From the IMG/VR virus record IMGVR_UViG_3300021142_000023, positions 12,453 through 76,452 of that record: a stretch of 64,000 nt of DNA; one strand, given 5' to 3'. Below, one piece after another: positions 5,643 through 64,000 of this stretch. This DNA comes from a virus. The notes beneath the pieces are model-generated. The model did not search any database. It was given only the letters and a program-made list of their open reading frames with translations, and had not been told where the DNA came from. A program made the translations under genes and the position numbers. Position 1 is the first letter of the stretch, and each line of letters begins with the position of its first letter.

Positions 5643-6083
5643 ATGGGTAAATTTACATCAACTAAAGTCATACCGCTAGGTAGCGCAGCCTTTCGTCAAC
5701 CCTACGCGAAAAGTCACTGCAAACTTGTTCATGGGTATCGTTTATCAGCTAAGTTCTGGTTTACATGCGAGCATCTCGATAATAATAATTGGGTAGTAGA
5801 TTTCGGTTCTCTTAAAGACCTTAAAATACGCCTCGAAGAGCTCTTCGATCATAAAACCGTTGTATGGGCTAAAGATCCTGAAATCGATACGTTTAAAGAC
5901 TTAGAGAAGCGTAGAATGATTGATCTAGTAGTACTTGAAGATGGTGTTGGTATTGAGCGTTTTGCTGAATTGTGTCACAACTTAGCTAATGAGTACGTTG
6001 ATGACCTTACTGATGGTCGTTGCTGGTGTACTCGAGTAGAAGTCTGGGAACATGAAGGTAATAGTGCAATTTACGAAGTTTAA
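5643..6083 (+). CDS. queD: 6-carboxy-5,6,7,8-tetrahydropterin synthase (QueD/PTPS family)
   Basis: SHCKLVHGY, WVVDFGSLK, FDHK, VEVWEH..NSAIY. Confidence 0.9.
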   Translation: MGKFTSTKVIPLGSAAFRQPYAKSHCKLVHGYRLSAKFWFTCEHLDNNNWVVDFGSLKDLKIRLEELFDHKTVVWAKDPEIDTFKDLEKRRMIDLVVLEDGVGIERFAELCHNLANEYVDDLTDGRCWCTRVEVWEHEGNSAIYEV

Positions 6084-6097
6084 TATATAATAGTTTT

Positions 6098-6904
6098 ATG
6101 TCTAATATTGATCCTAATACAACTTTATTCATTTCAGATGATTTTGTGTTCTACACATTAGAAGGCGAAGGCCGTTATATCGGTTACCCTTCAGTGTTTA
6201 TGAGAATGGCTATGTGTAACTTAACCTGTATTGGTTTTAAGAGCGAAGACTCACCAAACGGTTGTGATAGTTATGTTAGCTGGTCTAAGAAGAATAAAAT
6301 GACGTTTGAGGAAGTGGCTCAGTTGTTTGAGAAGAATGACTACCACGAGCGTCTAAAAGAAGGTGCATTACTTAAGTTAACTGGTGGAGAGCCTTTTATT
6401 CAGCAGAAGAACTTATTACTATTTGTTAAGTTTATTAGAGATCGTTGGGGTTTTGCTAACTATAGCAGAACTCTTACTACTGATGATATTGGTAAACCTA
6501 GATTGCATATCGACTTTGAAACTAACGGTACCATTATGCCGGGTGAAGAATGGTCTCGTCTAGGTGTACACGTAACATACACTACTTCACCTAAACTATC
6601 TAGTAACGGAGATCCTGCTGATAAACGTTATAAACCAGAAGTATTACGTTATTTGGCTATACATGATGCTTGTTTTAAGTTTGTAGCTAAACAAGAGTCA
6701 GACCTGAATGAAGTATTAGAAAACTATCTTAATAACCCTGAAGTAGCTGTACGTTCAGATCAAGTATGGATTATGCCTTGCTGTGGTAGCCGTAAAGAAC
6801 TACTAGAAGTTGGGCCTGCTGTGGCTGAACTATGTAAGAAATATAATTTTAAGTTCTCGAACAGAATGCACTTGCAAGTTTGGGACAAAGCCCTTAAAGT
6901 ATAA
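6098..6904 (+). CDS. queE: 7-carboxy-7-deazaguanine synthase (radical SAM)
   Basis: FYTLEGEG, CNLTC...CDS, LTGGEP, ETNGT, SPKL, KFV, R-HLQVW. Confidence 0.92.
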   Translation: MSNIDPNTTLFISDDFVFYTLEGEGRYIGYPSVFMRMAMCNLTCIGFKSEDSPNGCDSYVSWSKKNKMTFEEVAQLFEKNDYHERLKEGALLKLTGGEPFIQQKNLLLFVKFIRDRWGFANYSRTLTTDDIGKPRLHIDFETNGTIMPGEEWSRLGVHVTYTTSPKLSSNGDPADKRYKPEVLRYLAIHDACFKFVAKQESDLNEVLENYLNNPEVAVRSDQVWIMPCCGSRKELLEVGPAVAELCKKYNFKFSNRMHLQVWDKALKV

Positions 6905-10163: not shown

Positions 10164-11032
10164 CGAGTCGTAATCTTGCTAGTAGCGTCGTGAATCTTTT
10201 TACTAGAACTTGTAACAACTGTTTTAAATAGTTCTGCTAAGCCACGTAAGTTTTCAGCTAACTTAGTAATACGTTTTTCTTCACGGCGAACAATACCCTT
10301 AAAAGGAATAGAGTTGCGCATTTCTAATGCATTAATTTGAGCATTTAAACTATGCTCATCAGCACCATTAATGAATGTTGCCATGTCGTCAAGCTTCTTG
10401 ATCCACTCACGTGCTTTAGCAACGCCTTCTGTATCAAGCTTGAGAGCTGGGTTTGATGCTCCATCAAAAGCCTTAGGATCGGTTTTTGGGTCCAAGGATT
10501 TAGCCCAGCCAGCGTGGTCGTCGCCGCCTGCTTGAGCAGGGGCTGCCGGCGCCGGTGCTGGGGTTGGAGCTGGTTTAGCTTCTTGAAAATTTTCTTCTAA
10601 TGCCTCTTGAACGTTCTTTGCAAATTGTGCCATGTGACGGGTATGAGGATTCTTACTGTGTACAGCTTTGTTTAACTTTGCAGCAGGAATCTTTTCGCCT
10701 TGCGGCACGTGTAAAGCTTTATGTAAACCGCCTTTTTTAACATGTGCGTGTTGAATCCATTTCGGGTCGTTTTCTTTAACAGGAAATTCCTCGCCACCTA
10801 ACTCAAAAGTATCTTTACCAGCTTCTTTAGCTTTTTGATCTTTAAAATGTAAAACCCCGGCACCTTCTTTGTCTAAGACTTTACCTTTTTCCTTGACTGG
10901 AAATGTTTCATCGCCTAACTTAAATGAGTCTTTACCAGCTTTTTTAGCCTCTACATCCTTTAAATGCATAATACCAGCGTTACTCTCTTTGCCCAAGGAT
11001 TCATTAAAAGCGGTTATAAACTGATTCTTCAT
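10160..11032 (-). CDS. Hypothetical modular protein, probable internal head protein
   Basis: MKNQFITAFNES start 6 nt after TAAATA; internal duplication AKKAGKDSFKLGDETFPVKE / AKEAGKDTFELGGEEFPVKE. Confidence 0.65.
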   Translation of the reverse strand: MKNQFITAFNESLGKESNAGIMHLKDVEAKKAGKDSFKLGDETFPVKEKGKVLDKEGAGVLHFKDQKAKEAGKDTFELGGEEFPVKENDPKWIQHAHVKKGGLHKALHVPQGEKIPAAKLNKAVHSKNPHTRHMAQFAKNVQEALEENFQEAKPAPTPAPAPAAPAQAGGDDHAGWAKSLDPKTDPKAFDGASNPALKLDTEGVAKAREWIKKLDDMATFINGADEHSLNAQINALEMRNSIPFKGIVRREEKRITKLAENLRGLAELFKTVVTSSSKKIHDATSKITTR

Positions 11033-11089: not shown

Positions 11090-11833
11090 ATGTCAAAAGC
11101 ATTAGTCATATTATCAGGTGGAATGGACAGCTCTATATTACTTCACTATGTAACTAAGAAGCTTAATTACGATGAAGTATATGCTATTACGTTTAACTAC
11201 GGGCAACGGATTATTCGAGAAATCGACTGTGCAAAGTATCAGGTAGATGCTTGCAAAGTTAAAGAACATAAGATAGTAGATATGGATTTCTTTAGAAGTA
11301 TATCCACTATGTCTGCTTTAACCAATACCAATCTAAATATTCCAAAAGCTAAAGATGATATTGGTAATGCACAGCCTTTAAGCTATGTTCCTTTTAGAAA
11401 TTTACTTCTACTTACAACGGCTGCTGGTTGGGCTGAATCTATTGGGGCTTCAGACCTGTTTTACGGTGCAGTACAAACTGACGACTTCTCGGGTTACTGG
11501 GACTGCACGTCGTTATTCCTTAATAAGGTTAACGAACTATACAGTCTTAACCGTAAAAACGTTATTAAAGTTAATGCACCTTTTATGCAGTTCTCTAAAG
11601 AAGAGGTTGTCACAACAGGTATTGAACTAGGTATTAACTTTAAGCAAACCCATACATGTTACGAGGGTAAAGAAGTAGCATGCGGAGAGTGTGTATCATG
11701 TTCAGCAAGATTAAAAGCTTTTATAGATAATAAAATAATAGACCCAATACCTTATGCAAAAGAAGTACCTTGGTCTAAATACGATTGTAAACCTTATACT
11801 AAATCAACATATGTGCGGAATAGCGGGCAGTAA
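11090..11833 (+). CDS. queC: 7-cyano-7-deazaguanine synthase
   Basis: LSGGMDS, FNYGQR, YVPFRN, GYWDC, TCY....CGECVSC..R. Confidence 0.95.
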   Translation: MSKALVILSGGMDSSILLHYVTKKLNYDEVYAITFNYGQRIIREIDCAKYQVDACKVKEHKIVDMDFFRSISTMSALTNTNLNIPKAKDDIGNAQPLSYVPFRNLLLLTTAAGWAESIGASDLFYGAVQTDDFSGYWDCTSLFLNKVNELYSLNRKNVIKVNAPFMQFSKEEVVTTGIELGINFKQTHTCYEGKEVACGECVSCSARLKAFIDNKIIDPIPYAKEVPWSKYDCKPYTKSTYVRNSGQ

Positions 11834-12467
11834 ATACAGAACACAAGCGTTTGAGCATTACAAAGATAATCTCAATAGAGGTTATTATAGCTCTGGTGCG
11901 TTAGTAATAGACACTAACGGTCAGTATACTACTAAAAAAATATTAGGCACGTTTAAGGAACCTATAGACTGTTTTAATTCACCAGGTATACACACACGCG
12001 GTCAATATTTTTTGTACCATTCTCGCGGACCCACTGTTGAAACAAGAGAGTTTGAGACAGAAAACAATCATCCGTTTTTTTACGGTGATTGGGTAGTTGC
12101 ACATAACGGTATTATTAGCAATTTTGAGAGTTTATGTAGAGAGTACTTTCCAGACGAAGATTTTACCGGCAGAACCGATAGCTGTATTATTCCTCGTATG
12201 CTAGAAATTAAACCGCAAGTATCAGATGCTATTGAAGCACTTAAAGGTACGTATGCAATCTGGGCTTTTAATACAAAATATAAAAAGACTTGGTTAGCTA
12301 AGAGTGGTAGTACTTTATTTGCAAATACTAAAACAGGGGATTTTTCATCTACAGAATTTGACGAAAGTACACCTTTAAATGAAGGTATTATATATGCTGT
12401 ACAGGATTATAATAGTATAGTGCCGGCTGGAAGATTTAAGCACAAATCTCCATACTTCATATTCTAA
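11811..12467 (+). CDS. Class II (Ntn) glutamine amidotransferase
   Basis: MCGIAG N-terminal Cys nucleophile, NRG..SSG, HSRGPT, NNHPF, AHNGII, TDS; overlaps the queC stop. Confidence 0.88.
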   Translation: MCGIAGSKYRTQAFEHYKDNLNRGYYSSGALVIDTNGQYTTKKILGTFKEPIDCFNSPGIHTRGQYFLYHSRGPTVETREFETENNHPFFYGDWVVAHNGIISNFESLCREYFPDEDFTGRTDSCIIPRMLEIKPQVSDAIEALKGTYAIWAFNTKYKKTWLAKSGSTLFANTKTGDFSSTEFDESTPLNEGIIYAVQDYNSIVPAGRFKHKSPYFIF

Positions 12468-12475
12468 ATATATGC

Positions 12476-12844
12476 ATGCCCTCACGCAAAGCACCCGAAA
12501 GAAATACCGCTATAGACTATATCAATAGGGATATAGTTAACGTTAAAGAAGATCTAGCCAATATAAGCAAGATTGTTCGAGACGGTAATGGTCACCCGAG
12601 TTTAATGCAACAAGTTGCAACACTTAACAATGACTTGACGCATTTAAGAACAGAAATGGATAGTCGTTTTAATGAAACTCGAGACCTAATGGAAGTATAC
12701 CATAACGAAATGTACTCCGCTATTAATAAGTGTGATGCAAAACACCAAAAACAGCAAGGCTTACATTGGCATATGCAAACAGCTATTTGGGTTGCTTTAA
12801 TAAGCAGTGTAACTGATTTATTAATTCATTTTTTCGGGAAATAG
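12476..12844 (+). CDS. Coiled-coil protein with C-terminal hydrophobic helix (late-expressed membrane protein)
   Basis: Heptad-like middle, C-terminal AIWVALISSVTDLLIHFF; TAAATA at 12465-12470. Confidence 0.5.
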   Translation: MPSRKAPERNTAIDYINRDIVNVKEDLANISKIVRDGNGHPSLMQQVATLNNDLTHLRTEMDSRFNETRDLMEVYHNEMYSAINKCDAKHQKQQGLHWHMQTAIWVALISSVTDLLIHFFGK

Positions 12845-12886
12845 TAGTAGATTTATTTTTATAAACCTTTATAATGTAAGCACTAT

Positions 12887-13147
12887 ATGAAAGGCTTACA
12901 GTTAAATACAGAAGAGAAACAACTACTTGTAGAATCACTACTGTTTACGGCTAGTTGTGATGTGTGTTCAGATCACACCGCAGCACATCGTAAGCGTATA
13001 CTCGATCTTGCAGAAAAAATAAATGACAAGAATATAAAGCTGCATAATATTTTTATCTATAAAACTGGTATTAGTGATGACGTAACACTAGACGAGATTG
13101 CTAAGAAGTTTCCTAACGTTCCTCGCGAAACTATCATACAAGACTAA
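12887..13147 (+). CDS. Hypothetical protein
   Basis: ORF track. Confidence 0.55.
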   Translation: MKGLQLNTEEKQLLVESLLFTASCDVCSDHTAAHRKRILDLAEKINDKNIKLHNIFIYKTGISDDVTLDEIAKKFPNVPRETIIQD

Positions 13148-13833
13148 TGAACGTTTATATTGGTTTTTGTTCTACTGCTACCTCCTACTCTAATCTCAAG
13201 GAGAGAAGTAAATTCACTATCGTTAATAGTGAAGGCTTAGAAAATGTTAAAATCGCAAATGGGGCTTTTAATAATAAGACTGCTATTGCTAAGGTTTATA
13301 ACTCTTTTATTAACTCCCTTAAAGACGAAGACTGTATATTAGTACTAGCACATGATGATGTTGTTATTACTGATGAAAAATGGATAGAAAAACTAAAACA
13401 AGCCTTAAAACAATATGACGTGGTGGGTTTAGCAGGCGGGGTTAACCCTAAAATACAAGCACCTGCATTGTGGCACTTAATGTGTGCTAAGGAAGACTTA
13501 AAAGGCGGTGTTAACCATGTAGATATGGGTAAAAACAGTGTATTTAACACCACATTTGGTAAAAATGGTAGAGTGGCTCTTTTAGATGGTTTGTTCTTAG
13601 CATTTAACCCTAAAAAAATATCTGAAGTTGGTGTTAACTTTGATGAAACATGTCCATCTAAATTCCACTTCTACGACCTAGACTTTAGTTTACAATGTAA
13701 TAAAGCTAAACTTAAACTTGGTACCACTAACATTGGTGTTACACATGCTTCCCCAGGTCTACAAAACTATTCAGACGAATTTAGACTTGGACAAGACTGG
13801 TTTATTAACAAAGCAAGAACTGGACAATATTAA
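13147..13833 (+). CDS. Glycosyltransferase, GT-A fold (GT2-like)
   Basis: IAKVYN, VLAHDDV (DxD-like), VVGLAG, LDGLFLA, FDE...FHFYDLDFS. Confidence 0.75.
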   Translation: MNVYIGFCSTATSYSNLKERSKFTIVNSEGLENVKIANGAFNNKTAIAKVYNSFINSLKDEDCILVLAHDDVVITDEKWIEKLKQALKQYDVVGLAGGVNPKIQAPALWHLMCAKEDLKGGVNHVDMGKNSVFNTTFGKNGRVALLDGLFLAFNPKKISEVGVNFDETCPSKFHFYDLDFSLQCNKAKLKLGTTNIGVTHASPGLQNYSDEFRLGQDWFINKARTGQY

Positions 13834-13854
13834 TTTTTATAATACAATACTACT

Positions 13855-14436
13855 ATGATTATCAAAGACCAAACTATCTATAACGGCGATTTTATTCACA
13901 AGCGTTTTGCTTACAAGTATTTTAGAGATAAGACTCTAGCTGTGGGTAATATTGTTAGCTATGTTGCACCCGTAGAAGTTACATTAAATCTTATCGATTT
14001 AGAAGATTCTTTAGAAAAAGACTATATCTATAGTGAATCTATGATTAACTTCTGTTGGGAAATACCTAACTTAGATCCATTCGGTGCAGTTTGTTTTCAG
14101 CGTTTGTTTAATACAGCAATTGCTAATACTTTACATACGTATATTAAGAAGCCTATCGAAATGAAGGGCGACGACTTGATTGTTCACGGGGAATTTACAC
14201 AAGGCGGTGTAGTACAACAAAAAGGTAAAGCTTCGGTTAGTATTACGTACTCTAAAGACAACGTAGCTATTGGGCATACCGGTATTAATATTACTGCTGG
14301 TAAACAAGCACCTGCTTTTGCGTATAGCACAAACTTAACACCTGAGCAAGCAGAGAAGTTTCAGTTACAAGTGCATCAGCAATTTTACCAGATGGTAGAT
14401 AACATCTTTGTTGCTACTTCTAAGGTGATTGTTTGA
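13855..14436 (+). CDS. DUF366-like protein (biotin/lipoate-ligase-like fold)
   Basis: YNG..I...FAY, IDLED....YIYS..M.NF..E, FQRL, KGDDL, K.SVSI, HTGINI pattern recalled from the DUF366 family. Confidence 0.7.
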   Translation: MIIKDQTIYNGDFIHKRFAYKYFRDKTLAVGNIVSYVAPVEVTLNLIDLEDSLEKDYIYSESMINFCWEIPNLDPFGAVCFQRLFNTAIANTLHTYIKKPIEMKGDDLIVHGEFTQGGVVQQKGKASVSITYSKDNVAIGHTGINITAGKQAPAFAYSTNLTPEQAEKFQLQVHQQFYQMVDNIFVATSKVIV

Positions 14437-60426: not shown

Positions 60427-61299
60427 TTAAATGTTATGTAACAGTATTTCTACAGCATCCTTAGCAGTATGAGTACCATTATCCTGTTTCTTTCTTCTAC
60501 CAGCTGTATATGTTACCTCGTACTTGTGTAACTGTAGCTTACCTTGGTTGTCTGTATAGAAAGTGTCTCCGGTATCTCTACCACAAAACATCACTTTATG
60601 TTTGGTAGAAACATTTGAACAATACTTCATTAGTTCCACTTGCTTGTCATCTCCAAACACTTGCCCGTAGGCTGTAAAGCTATCCCTATAGGGTGGATCC
60701 ATAAAGTAAAAGGCTGTACCTTCTACCTTATCAACACATCCCTTCCAATCACCACAATAAATGTCTACCTTTTGTAAGAGTTTGTTCCACTCATACACAT
60801 TCTCTTTATCATATACAAAGAATGTTTCGTTCAATAGTCCGCAAGGTGTGGCAAACCTACCTTTACTCTCTTTCGTGGCCTGCCATATCCCGTTAAATGA
60901 GGTACGCATCAGGAAGTACAAGTGAGCTGCCTCCACCACCTTATTCCACTTGGAGTAATCAGTCCCATACTCTTTACGTATCTTGTAATAGTACTCCTTA
61001 CGTCCCTCTTTGGATAAAGGGATGTACTCTTGTTGTAACCCGTCTAATGTCTTTAAAAATGTCTTAACATCTGTCTTGATAGAGGTGTACAAGTTAACAA
61101 TCTCTTCATTAATATCATTTAATATGAACTTCTTTACATCTGGATTGTTCTCATACACATACAACATCATAGCACCACCACCGAAGAACGGCTCTACATA
61201 TGTATCATACCCACTTAGTGGTATGGTAGGTGTTTCCAGGTACTTGGGGATCATCTTGTTCTTACCCCCAGCCCATTTGTATAGTGGCTTAATTTTCAT
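60427..61299 (-). CDS. dam: DNA adenine methyltransferase, Dam/D12 family
   Basis: KWAGGK, YVEPFFGGGA, LNDIN, FNG, DPPY. Confidence 0.9.
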   Translation of the reverse strand: MKIKPLYKWAGGKNKMIPKYLETPTIPLSGYDTYVEPFFGGGAMMLYVYENNPDVKKFILNDINEEIVNLYTSIKTDVKTFLKTLDGLQQEYIPLSKEGRKEYYYKIRKEYGTDYSKWNKVVEAAHLYFLMRTSFNGIWQATKESKGRFATPCGLLNETFFVYDKENVYEWNKLLQKVDIYCGDWKGCVDKVEGTAFYFMDPPYRDSFTAYGQVFGDDKQVELMKYCSNVSTKHKVMFCGRDTGDTFYTDNQGKLQLHKYEVTYTAGRRKKQDNGTHTAKDAVEILLHNI

Positions 61300-61340
61300 T
61301 CACTACATTATAACATACCTATTGGGTAAGTCAAGCTCTT

Positions 61341-61463
61341 TCAATCGTAGAAACCATTTTCCCTCAACCACTTGATGGTTCTGGAATGATCCCATAACAG
61401 GTACAGAATACCTAGTAATGGTACTACCAAGATACCTAATACAACCAGGATTATCTTAATCAT
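61341..61463 (-). CDS. Small membrane protein (40 aa)
   Basis: Manual translation MIKIILVVLGILVVPLLGILYLLWDHSRTIKWLRENGFYD; ATGA overlap with the upstream gene. Confidence 0.5.
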   Translation of the reverse strand: MIKIILVVLGILVVPLLGILYLLWDHSRTIKWLRENGFYD

Positions 61464-61645
61464 TTCTTGTTCTTTACAAATTGATCATACAGGCTCTTGG
61501 TAGCTGGAGTGGCTTGACCAACCGCAACACTTCCTGGAGGTGTATTGTTGGTAGGGGTGCCCTTGGCTATGTTATAGATCTCCCATACCTTCCAGTTAAG
61601 ACTCTCCAGTTCTTTAATGATCTTTTCGGCTTGTTGTTCTGTCAT
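61460..61645 (-). CDS. Hypothetical protein
   Basis: ORF track, overlapping start/stop. Confidence 0.55.
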   Translation of the reverse strand: MTEQQAEKIIKELESLNWKVWEIYNIAKGTPTNNTPPGSVAVGQATPATKSLYDQFVKNKK

Positions 61646-61881
61646 TTTATTTTCCTTTTCTTTGGTACTCTCACCTCATCATTTATTTGTGTAAACTGGT
61701 CTTCTTGTAACAACTCCACTTGCCCGGTTGTATCGCTTATGTACTTGTTGTAAAGGGTGCTGGTGAGCTTGAGAGCTATATCAGCAATATCCTCCCGATC
61801 TTTGGTTGAGTTGGTAGGCCACTTATCCACTAAAGCAGCTGCCACAGATACAAAGATCTTATGTTTGAGTTTGTTGTTCAT
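61642..61881 (-). CDS. Hypothetical protein
   Basis: ORF track. Confidence 0.55.
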   Translation of the reverse strand: MNNKLKHKIFVSVAAALVDKWPTNSTKDREDIADIALKLTSTLYNKYISDTTGQVELLQEDQFTQINDEVRVPKKRKIK

Positions 61882-62488
61882 TTAAATATATTACCTCTTT
61901 ATCTGGTAACTGCAACTCTTCTTTTGGAAGATATGGTTTAATGTCTTCAAATGTGATGGTTAAGCCTAGATGCTGTTTAAAGATATTGAATAGCTCCTCG
62001 TCATTAAATGCTGGAGCATAATGGAAGGTGGTATTGTCTGGATATATGTTACCCATGGTAGTACCTAAGTTATTGAGTACTTTGCCCTCTTGAGCACCTG
62101 GTCCAGTCATAAATGTTACATACTTGTTTGTAGTACCCTTCAATAGTAGCTCGTAGCATATGCTAAAGTTCTTGCTCCATCTTTCGTGGGCATTACCAAA
62201 CACATCCTGGTGCTTAGCTTCAAAGATAGCTAGGATCTTTCTAGTACCATCTGGTTGTTTGGTGAACCACATACCACCATCTGGCTTCACACCCAACCCA
62301 ACCAGTTTACCATTAAACTCCGGTAAGGGTCTCTTTACAGATGATCCACTTACATATGTGAGTGTGGTGTTACCGGTCACCTTTAAATGAGTCCTAATGG
62401 CTTCAGCCATATACTTAACGCTATCATCTAGCTTAGTTGATTCTATGCTAGCTGCTGTTGTGCCTGGTTGTATACCTCTAGTACTCAT
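61859..62488 (-). CDS. EcoRI/MunI-like type II restriction endonuclease
   Basis: KPDGG...IFEAKHQ...GNAHERWSKN (EcoRI: KPDGG...AEAKHQ...GNAIERSHKN; MunI: GNAHER). Confidence 0.75.
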   Translation of the reverse strand: MSTRGIQPGTTAASIESTKLDDSVKYMAEAIRTHLKVTGNTTLTYVSGSSVKRPLPEFNGKLVGLGVKPDGGMWFTKQPDGTRKILAIFEAKHQDVFGNAHERWSKNFSICYELLLKGTTNKYVTFMTGPGAQEGKVLNNLGTTMGNIYPDNTTFHYAPAFNDEELFNIFKQHLGLTITFEDIKPYLPKEELQLPDKEVIYLNEQQTQT

Positions 62489-62532: not shown

Positions 62533-62573
62533 AAAAAGAGCGGTAGGGTGAAAATAAAAAAGCCCTACCGCTC
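62533..62573 (-). terminator. Terminator hairpin downstream of the AP2-like gene
   Basis: 11-bp stem gagcggtaggg/ccctaccgctc with an A5 tract at 62533-62537 (U-tract on the minus strand). Confidence 0.7.
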
Positions 62574-62617
62574 TCGTGTTGATATATTATGAATAACCCC
62601 CTTGTGGGGGAAATGGA

Positions 62618-62875
62618 TTAGTTACGGACGATACGACGACCGAAGAACTCAGTCTTTGATGGACGTCCCATACGGCGGCATGCCTTACGGAATTGAGTTG
62701 GTGAAGCATGCAAGCGTAGGTAGCGAGCGTACTCAGTAGCACGTGCAATAGCGGTCTCAAGACCACCAAACTTTGTTACTAAGAACCGGCGGGTACGGCG
62801 TACACCATCACGCATTACATTGACTTGAACACTGATAGCCTTGCGGCCTTGTTTTTGAATATATAGGTTTTTCAT
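62618..62875 (-). CDS. Small basic protein, AP2-like DNA-binding domain
   Basis: Three beta strands, then RRFLVTKFGGLETAIARATEYAR (AP2 pattern F---K(Y/F)G---A---A---R). Confidence 0.55.
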   Translation of the reverse strand: MKNLYIQKQGRKAISVQVNVMRDGVRRTRRFLVTKFGGLETAIARATEYARYLRLHASPTQFRKACRRMGRPSKTEFFGRRIVRN

Positions 62876-63042
62876 ATCTTTATGATGTTATTATTATCGT
62901 TTACTTTACTAAAAAGTCAAGCACTATTTGTTATTATCTTTGTTATTTGTTGTAAGGTTGTGTTCCTAATTGATAAGACAAGTATGGTTACTTTTACCCA
63001 AACGGTCAAGCTTTATTTTTAACACGCGTCCTTTTTTCTAAC

Positions 63043-63056
63043 ACACTACGTAGTGT
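63043..63056. repeat. 14-bp perfect palindrome
   Basis: acactacgtagtgt. Confidence 0.8.
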
Positions 63057-63305
63057 TTTTTATTTAAAAAAAGTACCTTATTATGCGAACTTTATTAATA
63101 AACGGCAAGTTTATTTTTATTAAAATATAATAAAAAATATTAAAAATATATTATTTTTTTATTGCAAAAAATAATAAAATAAATATTATATATATATAAA
63201 TTATTTAAAAAATATTATTAAAACTTTTATAAAAATATTAATAAAAAAATATATTATAAAAAATATAATATTAATAATTAATTTAAATAATAATAAAATA
63301 ATAAT

Positions 63306-63527
63306 ATGAAGAATAATAAATTAAAAATATATAAAAATAAAGATTTAGGTATTTATAAAATTAATAATTATAAGATAAATGATGAAGTATTATTAAAAAA
63401 TAATGATGTATTGAGGATTGTAGGTTTTAGAGAGGAAGATGGGGTTATGATGGTAGATGGGTATTTTAATAGTGATGATTGTGGGGGTAGTGAGGAGTTT
63501 AATAATATAGTAAGTTTATATAATTAA
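63306..63527 (+). CDS. Hypothetical early protein encoded without cytosine
   Basis: 73 aa; no C in the coding strand; protein lacks A, P, T, Q and H. Confidence 0.7.
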   Translation: MKNNKLKIYKNKDLGIYKINNYKINDEVLLKNNDVLRIVGFREEDGVMMVDGYFNSDDCGGSEEFNNIVSLYN

Positions 63528-63537
63528 TAAATTAATT

Positions 63538-63578
63538 AATTTTAGTGTTGATTTAAATAATAAAAGTAGATATATTAA
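63538..63578 (+). promoter_or_regulatory. Early promoter, copy 1 of a 41-bp exact repeat
   Basis: aattttagtgTTGATTtaaataataaaagtagaTATATTaa; 17-nt spacer; ATG 5 nt after the -10 box. Confidence 0.75.
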
Positions 63579-63581
63579 AAT

Positions 63582-63818
63582 ATGAGTAATAATAAAAGAG
63601 AAGTTAAATTAATAAATTGTAATTTATTAGATGTTAAAAATAATAAATTAATTAAAATGAAGGGTTATGTAAAAATTGTAAATTATGATAATAAAGAATA
63701 TTTTGAGGTTAATTTAAGAGATGGAGATTTTGAAAATGAGAAGTATATTTTAATAGGAAGTAATGAGAAGTTTAAGATTTTTGATAAAGATGATGATGGT
63801 GGTTATTTTGTGATTTAA
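63582..63818 (+). CDS. Hypothetical early protein encoded without cytosine
   Basis: 78 aa; no C in the coding strand; lacks A, P, T, Q and H. Confidence 0.7.
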   Translation: MSNNKREVKLINCNLLDVKNNKLIKMKGYVKIVNYDNKEYFEVNLRDGDFENEKYILIGSNEKFKIFDKDDDGGYFVI

Positions 63819-63835
63819 ATATATTAAGTAGTTTG

Positions 63836-63876
63836 AATTTTAGTGTTGATTTAAATAATAAAAGTAGATATATTAA
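63836..63876 (+). promoter_or_regulatory. Early promoter, copy 2 of the 41-bp exact repeat
   Basis: Identical to 63538-63578; ATG 6 nt after the -10 box. Confidence 0.75.
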
Positions 63877-63880
63877 TAAA

Positions 63881-64000
63881 ATGAAAAATAATAAAATAGA
63901 TAAAGAAATAGATAATTTTTATAATAATTTAAATATATTATTAAAAGATATAAAGAGTGAAGTAGATAGATGTAAAAAAATATTAGAAAATAATAATTAT
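63881..64000 (+). CDS. Hypothetical early protein encoded without cytosine (partial)
   Basis: Manual translation MKNNKIDKEIDNFYNNLNILLKDIKSEVDRCKKILENNNY..., open to the window end. Confidence 0.65.
   Translation, partial: MKNNKIDKEIDNFYNNLNILLKDIKSEVDRCKKILENNNY

Follow-up and report, generated by a model that had tools for sequence, protein, structure and literature searches.

Results

A cytosine-free tract at the end of a phage contig

The window, as we call the whole 64,000-nt stretch of DNA analyzed here, comprises the final 64 kb of one IMG/VR virus contig, which is 76,452 bp long and has a CheckV completeness of 36%. Its right-hand end carries a series of small genes whose sense strand contains no cytosine. 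On the left, the series is bordered by a gene of normal composition (62618..62875, minus strand) that encodes an 85-aa protein with a weak match to the AP2 domain. This AP2-like gene is a conserved border of the island described below and also precedes it in the related loci L035, L001, L031, L033, and L038. Next to it lies a near-pure A/T spacer (63107..63305, plus strand), which contains two C and two G and heads the rightward block of genes. The spacer is C-free at 63107-63164 and 63166-63223, is G-free at 63165-63307, and is homologous to one arm of a 119-nt inverted repeat that brackets the island in relatives.

Three C-free genes follow on the plus strand. Gene 1 (63306..63527) encodes a 73-aa ORFan protein with a pI of ∼5 that belongs to family F3, which has 10 members in related loci and no match in Pfam or PHROGs. 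A consensus scan places a candidate promoter for this gene at 63271..63299 (plus strand; TTAATA-17-TAAAAT), with the -10 box 6 nt ahead of the ATG. Gene 2, referred to here as ORF2 (63582..63818), encodes a 78-aa, all-beta ORFan protein of family F1, for which 74 homologue clusters were found. Gene 3 (63881..64000) belongs to family F5, whose product is ∼80 aa long in relatives (L035 1322-1564), and only its 5′ part is present. The original prediction of three intact open reading frames thus holds for 63306-63527 and 63582-63818 but not for the frame at 63881, which runs off the contig end.

Genes 2 and 3 are each headed by a predicted promoter cassette, and the two cassettes are identical, as had been claimed. 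The first copy (63538..63578, plus strand) has a -35 box TTGATT at 63548-63553 and a -10 box TATATT at 63571-63576, with the ATG 5 nt further on. The second copy (63836..63876, plus strand) is a 41-nt exact repeat of the first and is followed by the ATG after 6 nt. The cassette consensus, TTGATT-17-TATATT, is sigma-70-like and occurs in two exact copies in the window and in ten in L035, where seven point rightward and three leftward. The regions directly ahead of genes 2 and 3 (63571-63584 and 63869-63883) contain no Shine-Dalgarno sequence, and the -10 box ends only 5 to 6 nt ahead of the ATG, a spacing that suggests that the island mRNAs are probably leaderless.

A recount of the tract from 63225 to 64000 gave 373 A, 283 T, 120 G, and no C, in agreement with the initial hand count of about 120 G, and the last C is at 63224. 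The tract stops at 64000 because the contig ends there, and "at least 776 nt" is therefore the right description of its length. The runner-up among C-free runs, in the window as in the whole 76,452-bp contig, is 58 nt long. The probability of 776 nt without C is ∼1e-68 at the C frequency of the genome and ∼1e-57 if the frequency of C is set equal to the local frequency of G. At the composition of the tract, a stop codon is expected once per 7 codons, and the probability of 73 open codons is ∼2e-5. As the original prediction had it, the proteins of the tract lack Ala, Pro, Thr, Gln, and His.

The C content of the open reading frames on this contig is 0% for the island genes, 7.9% for the next-lowest frame, and 17% on average for long frames, and the rest of the genome has 18% C. 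The C-free class is therefore discrete and all-or-none within the contig, without intermediate genes. That the C-free strand is the sense strand is forced, because a G-free sense strand cannot hold an ATG start codon. Such a strand could not encode Asp, Glu, or Gly either, and the C-free sense strand is therefore uninformative on mechanism. For this reason, we rejected the choice of strand as a sign of a transcription-level cause.

Near the island, the minus strand of the window (60427-62488) encodes a D12-class N6-adenine methyltransferase (Pfam, 1e-30). The methyltransferase is adjoined by a 209-aa protein that has a weak match to the EcoRI family (E = 0.012), belongs to a PHROG of unknown function, and has no relative in IMG/VR. 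Judged from these matches, the two proteins may form a phage-borne restriction-methylation pair beside the island.

Recurrence in independent metagenomes

The tract is AT-rich and lies at the end of a contig, and these two properties could point to an artefact, such as chimerism at the contig end, deamination or bisulfite treatment of the library, or low-complexity junk. Such an artefact is hardly credible, however, when the following observations are considered. The junction that runs from the AP2-like gene through the spacer into the island recurs at 94 to 96% identity in independent contigs, which speaks against a chimera and bears out the proposal that the region belongs to the phage. Together with the genes, it was found in ∼20 freshwater or lake-water metagenome runs from 2016, 2018, and 2020 and in more than 20 independent contigs. 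One of these relatives, the IMG/VR locus L001, matches the window from 62546 to 63689 at 96% and also ends within the tract. In addition, the composition of the flanking DNA is normal, the C-free strand changes when the genes change direction, and the open reading frames are conserved, with variation mostly at third codon positions.

A scan of JGI metagenomes returned 23 loci, with a longest C-free run of 2,520 nt and one 2,018-nt contig that is C-free throughout. A scan of IMG/VR with a 17-mer of the promoter gave 20 chance matches and two true loci only, and the tract had no DNA or protein match among GenBank phages.

Organization of the island in related contigs

Beyond the contig end, the island could be read through in two relatives, L035, which is 96% identical to the end of the window, and L031. 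The rightward C-free run extends there over 2407 to 2520 nt and is followed by a block of 1.0 to 1.1 kb in which the plus strand is G-free, so the tract does continue past the window as anticipated. In both relatives, the leftward AP2-like gene and the A/T spacer are followed by eight rightward C-free genes, a bidirectional GC-rich terminator with three GTGTTCAAA repeats (fold z = -3.6), and five leftward genes. The plus strand of the leftward genes is G-free, and they are thus C-free on their own sense strand. A second A/T spacer then leads into ordinary leftward genes. The two spacers pair as the 119-nt inverted repeat, and the arms in L035 (586-704 and 4331-4449) are 82% complementary. C reappears 14 nt past the last rightward stop codon and 11 nt past the last leftward one.

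From this arrangement, we are confident that an island of 3.7 kb, of which the tract forms the left margin, lies within a hyperplastic, early-type region of this uncultured T4-like myovirus from freshwater. There is little doubt that the island consists of ∼13 genes of 45 to 125 codons in two convergent blocks, and most of them very probably stand behind the repeated, predicted sigma-70-like promoter cassette that ends 5 to 6 nt ahead of the ATG. It is equally well supported that the sense strand of each block is without C throughout, beginning at the promoter and ending with the stop codon of the block's final gene, such that the mRNAs consist of A, G, and U, the template is G-free, and the proteins draw on 15 amino acids.

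The three GTGTTCAAA copies lie between the convergent blocks at L035:3140-3200, and in the same place in L031, with a spacing of ∼20 nt, beside the bidirectional terminator. A 145-nt piece that holds the copies is enclosed by the arms GCTTGCC...GGCAAGC. The array may serve as a binding site for proteins; alternatively, it may have been inserted into an ancestral terminator hairpin.

A position at a genome terminus, in DNA that enters the cell first, was also considered for the island and was rejected because L035 and L031 continue through it into further phage genes. A C-free cassette of the island is likewise internal to a 140-kb contig, G001, which indicates that there is no fixed first-entering end.

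Gene order and orientation vary among the loci, and members of families F2, F7, F9, and F11 are found in the rightward block of L026, L028, and L030 and in the leftward block of L031 and L035. The arrangement resembles the promoter-early stem-loop (PeSL) cassettes of the T4-type phages RB49 and phi1 (Arbiol et al. 2010, PMC2839356). In both cases, a hyperplastic region of a T4-like phage holds small ORFan genes, each behind a repeated sigma-70-like promoter (here a predicted one), and gene content, order, and orientation are shuffled among relatives at the repeats. We consider it very likely that the island genes have been shuffled by PeSL-like recombination at the promoter repeats. The island differs from PeSL cassettes in two ways. 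First, its intergenic cassettes are without a stem-loop (-5.4 and -6.6 kcal/mol; z = 0.1), since G-C pairing is impossible in RNA that lacks C, and a terminator (z = -3.6) is present only at the block end. Second, the exclusion of a nucleotide from the genes is a feature of the island and not a property of PeSL cassettes.

The contig G001, whose DpdA3 (see below) is 88% identical to that of the window's phage, holds only a two-gene, 466-nt C-free cassette. The F1 gene of this cassette is driven by a local leader in which there are at least eight C's, and three synonymous C's have arisen in the gene itself. These gains under a C-containing leader place the constraint in the expression context and not in the protein. 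A direct duplication of ∼100 nt (L002:9886-10000 and 10533-10637; IMGVR_UViG_3300022602_000038, 140 kb), which consists of the resident promoter and 5′ leader, flanks the cassette and looks like the footprint of its insertion by recombination.

A number of contigs end inside the island, namely the window's own contig (at 64000), L001, L026-L030, L032, L033, L038, L039, L041, and L043. Assemblies presumably break at the repeated promoter cassettes. As assemblies stop inside such islands, the islands are probably under-represented, truncated, or missing in short-read phage genomes and databases.

Gene families and the reduced amino acid alphabet

With a cut-off of at most 2% C, the 25 loci yielded 116 island open reading frames in 19 ORFan families, with 24 C's in ∼24 kb. 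For ORF2 (F1), a collection of 5.8 billion proteins holds 74 homologue clusters at 76 to 100% identity. Sixty-six of these clusters are without Ala, Pro, Thr, Gln, and His, and among 5,583 residues only 10 need a codon with C. A profile search with F1 against 1.84 billion representatives matched its own cluster alone and found no remote relatives, and it therefore yielded no ancestor with an ordinary alphabet. The island proteins are mostly acidic, and the 13 that were searched had no match in Pfam or PHROGs. The AlphaFold2 model of F1 has a pLDDT of 59.9, which is too low for a fold search, and the scores for ORF1 in the ESM Atlas were below 0.9.

That the island open reading frames are translated genes follows from their variation by codon position, which is highest at the third position (0.28, as compared to 0.18 and 0.15 at the others). 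Together with the 74 ORF2 clusters, this supports the assignment of the frames as genes that had been made from the window alone. Where a residue leaves a choice between synonymous codons, a C-containing codon is used in 0.2% of cases in the island as compared to 33.5% in the window's ordinary genes. The combined share of Ala, Pro, Thr, Gln, and His is 0.2% in the island versus 25.9% in the ordinary genes.

Exclusion of cytosine and the places where it is tolerated

In the family alignments, 16 of the 608 variable columns involve C, and there are 336 exchanges between A and G as compared to nine between T and C. When the contig was aligned with its relatives, 3 of 415 substitutions in the tract created a C (0.7%), whereas 138 of 497 did so in the flanking DNA (28%), which amounts to a ∼40-fold purge of new C's. 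The sequences have diverged substantially and yet have stayed C-free, and new C's must therefore be removed, either by selection or by equally strong directional mutation. A strong directional pressure against new C's, most simply purifying selection, can be regarded as established with high confidence, in line with the active exclusion of C that had been proposed. The amino acid composition also bears on the kind of change involved. Amino acid gains are chiefly Lys and Glu, and not the Val, Leu, Phe, and Ile expected from plain C-to-T decay of ordinary genes.

The places where C is tolerated were found in leaky relatives, in which the density of C is 0.46% between genes versus 0.11% within coding sequence. 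The intergenic C's number 15 in total. Each of them is 16 nt or more upstream of the ATG, most often inside a variant -35 box, TTGCCT, which leaves the last 15 nt ahead of the ATG free of C, although these intergenic events are few and partly related by descent. The tolerance upstream and the sharp 3′ borders of the blocks place the constraint on the interval from the transcription start to the stop codon. Given the number of events, we regard exclusion over this interval as suggestive only. A start-to-stop constraint argues against a purely DNA-level rule such as the avoidance of restriction sites.

The avoidance of recognition sites was one of the reasons put forward originally. A strand without C excludes any site with both G and C, and thus nearly all restriction and defense motifs, from genes that would precede counter-defense. 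This follows logically from the composition, and site avoidance is a known strategy of phages. As an explanation of the island, however, it has been weakened to the point of being very unlikely. Relatives tolerate C in -35 boxes but not between start and stop, which is not what a DNA-level rule predicts, and AT-only palindromes are not avoided in the island. A single new C rarely makes a site, and yet single C's are purged. Moreover, a T4-like headful phage is without a fixed first-entering end, and a cut elsewhere in the genome would be equally lethal.

A cause at the level of translation or tRNA was rejected because promoters and spacers are C-free as well. Because the pattern is all-or-none and even single C's are purged, a cost per C is required. 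A cost or bias per site would be imposed by a host or phage enzyme that attacks C, either on the exposed non-template strand of DNA under very heavy transcription or in the mRNA. The agent could be a cytosine deaminase acting on single-stranded DNA, in line with the deamination suggested originally, or a dC/C-specific nuclease of the type of the dC-specific endonuclease IV of phage T4, and C-free genes would either be immune or have been swept clean by C-to-T hypermutation. This proposal fits the near-total purge of T-to-C changes, the fact that double-stranded -35 boxes tolerate C whereas the sequence starting at -15 does not, and the scarcity of both G and C in the spacers that head each block. 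It is nevertheless improbable, because replication exposes far more single-stranded DNA and the remainder of the genome has 18% C, and because the enrichment is in Lys and Glu rather than in the products of plain C-to-T decay.

The folding data are relevant to a further explanation, in which C-less mRNA offers no YC for Rho loading and no G-C pairs, such that short early transcripts, leaderless in all probability, would escape both premature termination and folding. The intergenic cassettes fold no better than shuffled sequences (z ∼0.1), and C reappears at exactly the point that requires a terminator hairpin. Furthermore, the avoidance of Rho has been reported to give sense strands a purine bias in cases in which transcription runs ahead of translation (Dierksheide et al. 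2026, PMC13323073), and the sense strands of the island are likewise purine-enriched and C-depleted. That bias is graded and genome-wide, however, whereas the depletion here is absolute, confined to one island, and bimodal with respect to the genome. Rho needs a long C-rich, G-poor stretch, and the last C's in a gene with 20% G would cost nearly nothing, yet they are purged ∼40-fold. The class is all-or-none, without intermediate genes, and other early-type genes of the same phage have 8 to 17% C. We therefore think it unlikely that Rho and structure avoidance is the cause.

A block to the incorporation of C would also predict a constraint from the start site to the stop codon, with C allowed past the last stop, and an all-or-none class. 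Such a block could arise from a shortage of CTP, which is the least abundant NTP, or from its poisoning, for which the chain-terminating ddhCTP made by prokaryotic viperins is an example, and C-free transcripts could still be made under these conditions. Independence from CTP was also among the reasons suggested originally. All later genes of the phage need CTP, however, and such independence seems quite improbable as the cause.

Phage identity and 7-deazaguanine genes

The contig belongs to a distant T4-like myovirus, whose major head protein is 36% identical to a cyanophage gp23 (T4 gp23 family) and which also encodes a baseplate wedge protein, a helicase, and a ribonucleotide reductase. A DpdA3 homologue (L049:136-942, minus strand) aligns along its full length (100%), at 49% identity, with the protein annotated as DpdA in phage vB_FspM_immuto_2-6A (immuto_2-6A below), and it is 42.6% identical to that of Campylobacter phage CP220. 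The Pfam TGT model did not match it, as expected for a divergent subfamily. In the contig (36% complete), Pfam identified QueC (2e-62), QueD/PTPS (3e-16), and, by a weak radical-SAM match, QueE.

In the window regions 11090-14436 and 5643-6904, the genes for a glutamine amidotransferase, a family-2 glycosyltransferase, and DUF366 come after QueC, and QueD and QueE share another operon with a P-loop protein. This gene content suggests that the phage makes a 7-deazaguanine derivative other than those already known, perhaps with a sugar attached. In the DpdA3 phages CP220, phiST (a Cellulophaga phage), and immuto_2-6A, G is completely replaced in the DNA (PMC10516641), and by analogy every G in the virion DNA of the present phage is probably replaced as well.

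Eight GenBank phages were scanned for C-free runs of at least 124 nt. The only one with such a run was immuto_2-6A, in gp143 (NC_055915.1 68330-68686; L055:1831-2187), which has five C's and 89 G's in 357 nt, neighbors of normal composition, and no homology to the 19 island families. No C-free run of at least 124 nt was found in the fully modified CP220 and phiST, or in three phages with more distant DpdA-like genes.

Discussion

The explanation that we tentatively favor is that transcripts of the island never require the polymerase to read a modified G in the template. We hold it as possible and short of probable. According to this proposal, DpdA3, QueC, QueD, QueE, and the amidotransferase would constitute a pathway that replaces every G of the virion DNA with a 7-deazaguanine derivative, as in the cultured phages. 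On a G-free template, unmodified host RNA polymerase could transcribe the injected, fully modified DNA without meeting a modified G, and the island would be a natural "G-less cassette" whose genes could be made first and fastest. The products might counteract host defense, take over the host, or adapt the polymerase to a modified template. C would be permitted in terminators and -35 boxes, as these are not part of the start-to-stop interval.

The G-free template was among the reasons originally suggested, and it is the best anchored of them because DpdA3, QueC, and QueD have been verified. Cultured DpdA3 phages, however, are mostly without such tracts. CP220 and phiST are fully modified and yet contain no C-free run of at least 124 nt, and DpdA3 is therefore not sufficient. 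The gene gp143 keeps five C's, and the polymerase that reads it must therefore pass modified G's. Likewise, other pre-replicative genes, such as those for the polymerase and the que genes, are normal in C, which means that host polymerase must read modified G at some stage. Two further observations weigh against the modified-G explanation, namely the eight or more C's in the F1 leader of G001, with its 88% identical DpdA3, and the G that island promoters keep in the -35 box. In favor of the explanation are the nearly C-free gp143 of the fully modified immuto_2-6A and the finding that bulky 7-substituted 7-deazaguanines nearly abolish in vitro transcription by the RNA polymerases of E. coli and B. 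subtilis (PMC4838386). That inhibition, however, occurred mainly at initiation and not at elongation, and small substituents were tolerated (PMC4838386).

A more far-reaching version, which we consider somewhat doubtful, is that the island would be a bootstrap device for hypermodified genomes. It would consist of immediate-early genes with a G-free template that an unprepared host RNA polymerase could read in DNA with a bulky 7-deazaguanine adduct at every G, and their products would open up what remains of the modified genome or decide the first seconds of the contest with host defense in favor of the phage.

Several known systems share features with the island. Synthetic G-less and C-less cassettes are engineered, non-coding sequences for in vitro transcription, and they too give RNA that lacks one nucleotide and is made without one NTP or one template base. 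In contrast, the island consists of natural protein-coding genes in at least 19 families that are kept so by selection. The pre-early anti-defense genes of T7 (0.3, Ocr) and the first-step-transfer region of T5 are not known to have a skewed alphabet. The likeness to these genes lies in tiny, mostly acidic proteins that may be the first to be made, from strong host-type promoters (predicted ones in the present case); the island differs in its skewed alphabet and shows no sign of stepwise DNA entry. With the DpdA3 phages, the present phage has in common a DpdA3 homologue (49% and 43% identity) and QueC, QueD, and QueE, and immuto_2-6A has one nearly C-free gene. CP220 and phiST differ in lacking such tracts, and we found no description of a link between modification and composition.

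A literature search found no published description of C-free natural protein-coding genes, in agreement with the original remark that no described precedent was known. As far as that search reaches, natural protein-coding genes that exclude one nucleotide, and hence five amino acids, have not been described. The island shows that a 15-letter alphabet suffices for functional proteins to be built and to evolve, and selection has kept C out of at least 19 gene families in many phage lineages. It points to a strong cost per nucleotide at the start of infection, be it for C in the transcript or for G in the template. Once found, the cause would reveal either how host polymerase handles fully modified DNA or a cytosine-directed defense or physiological limit.
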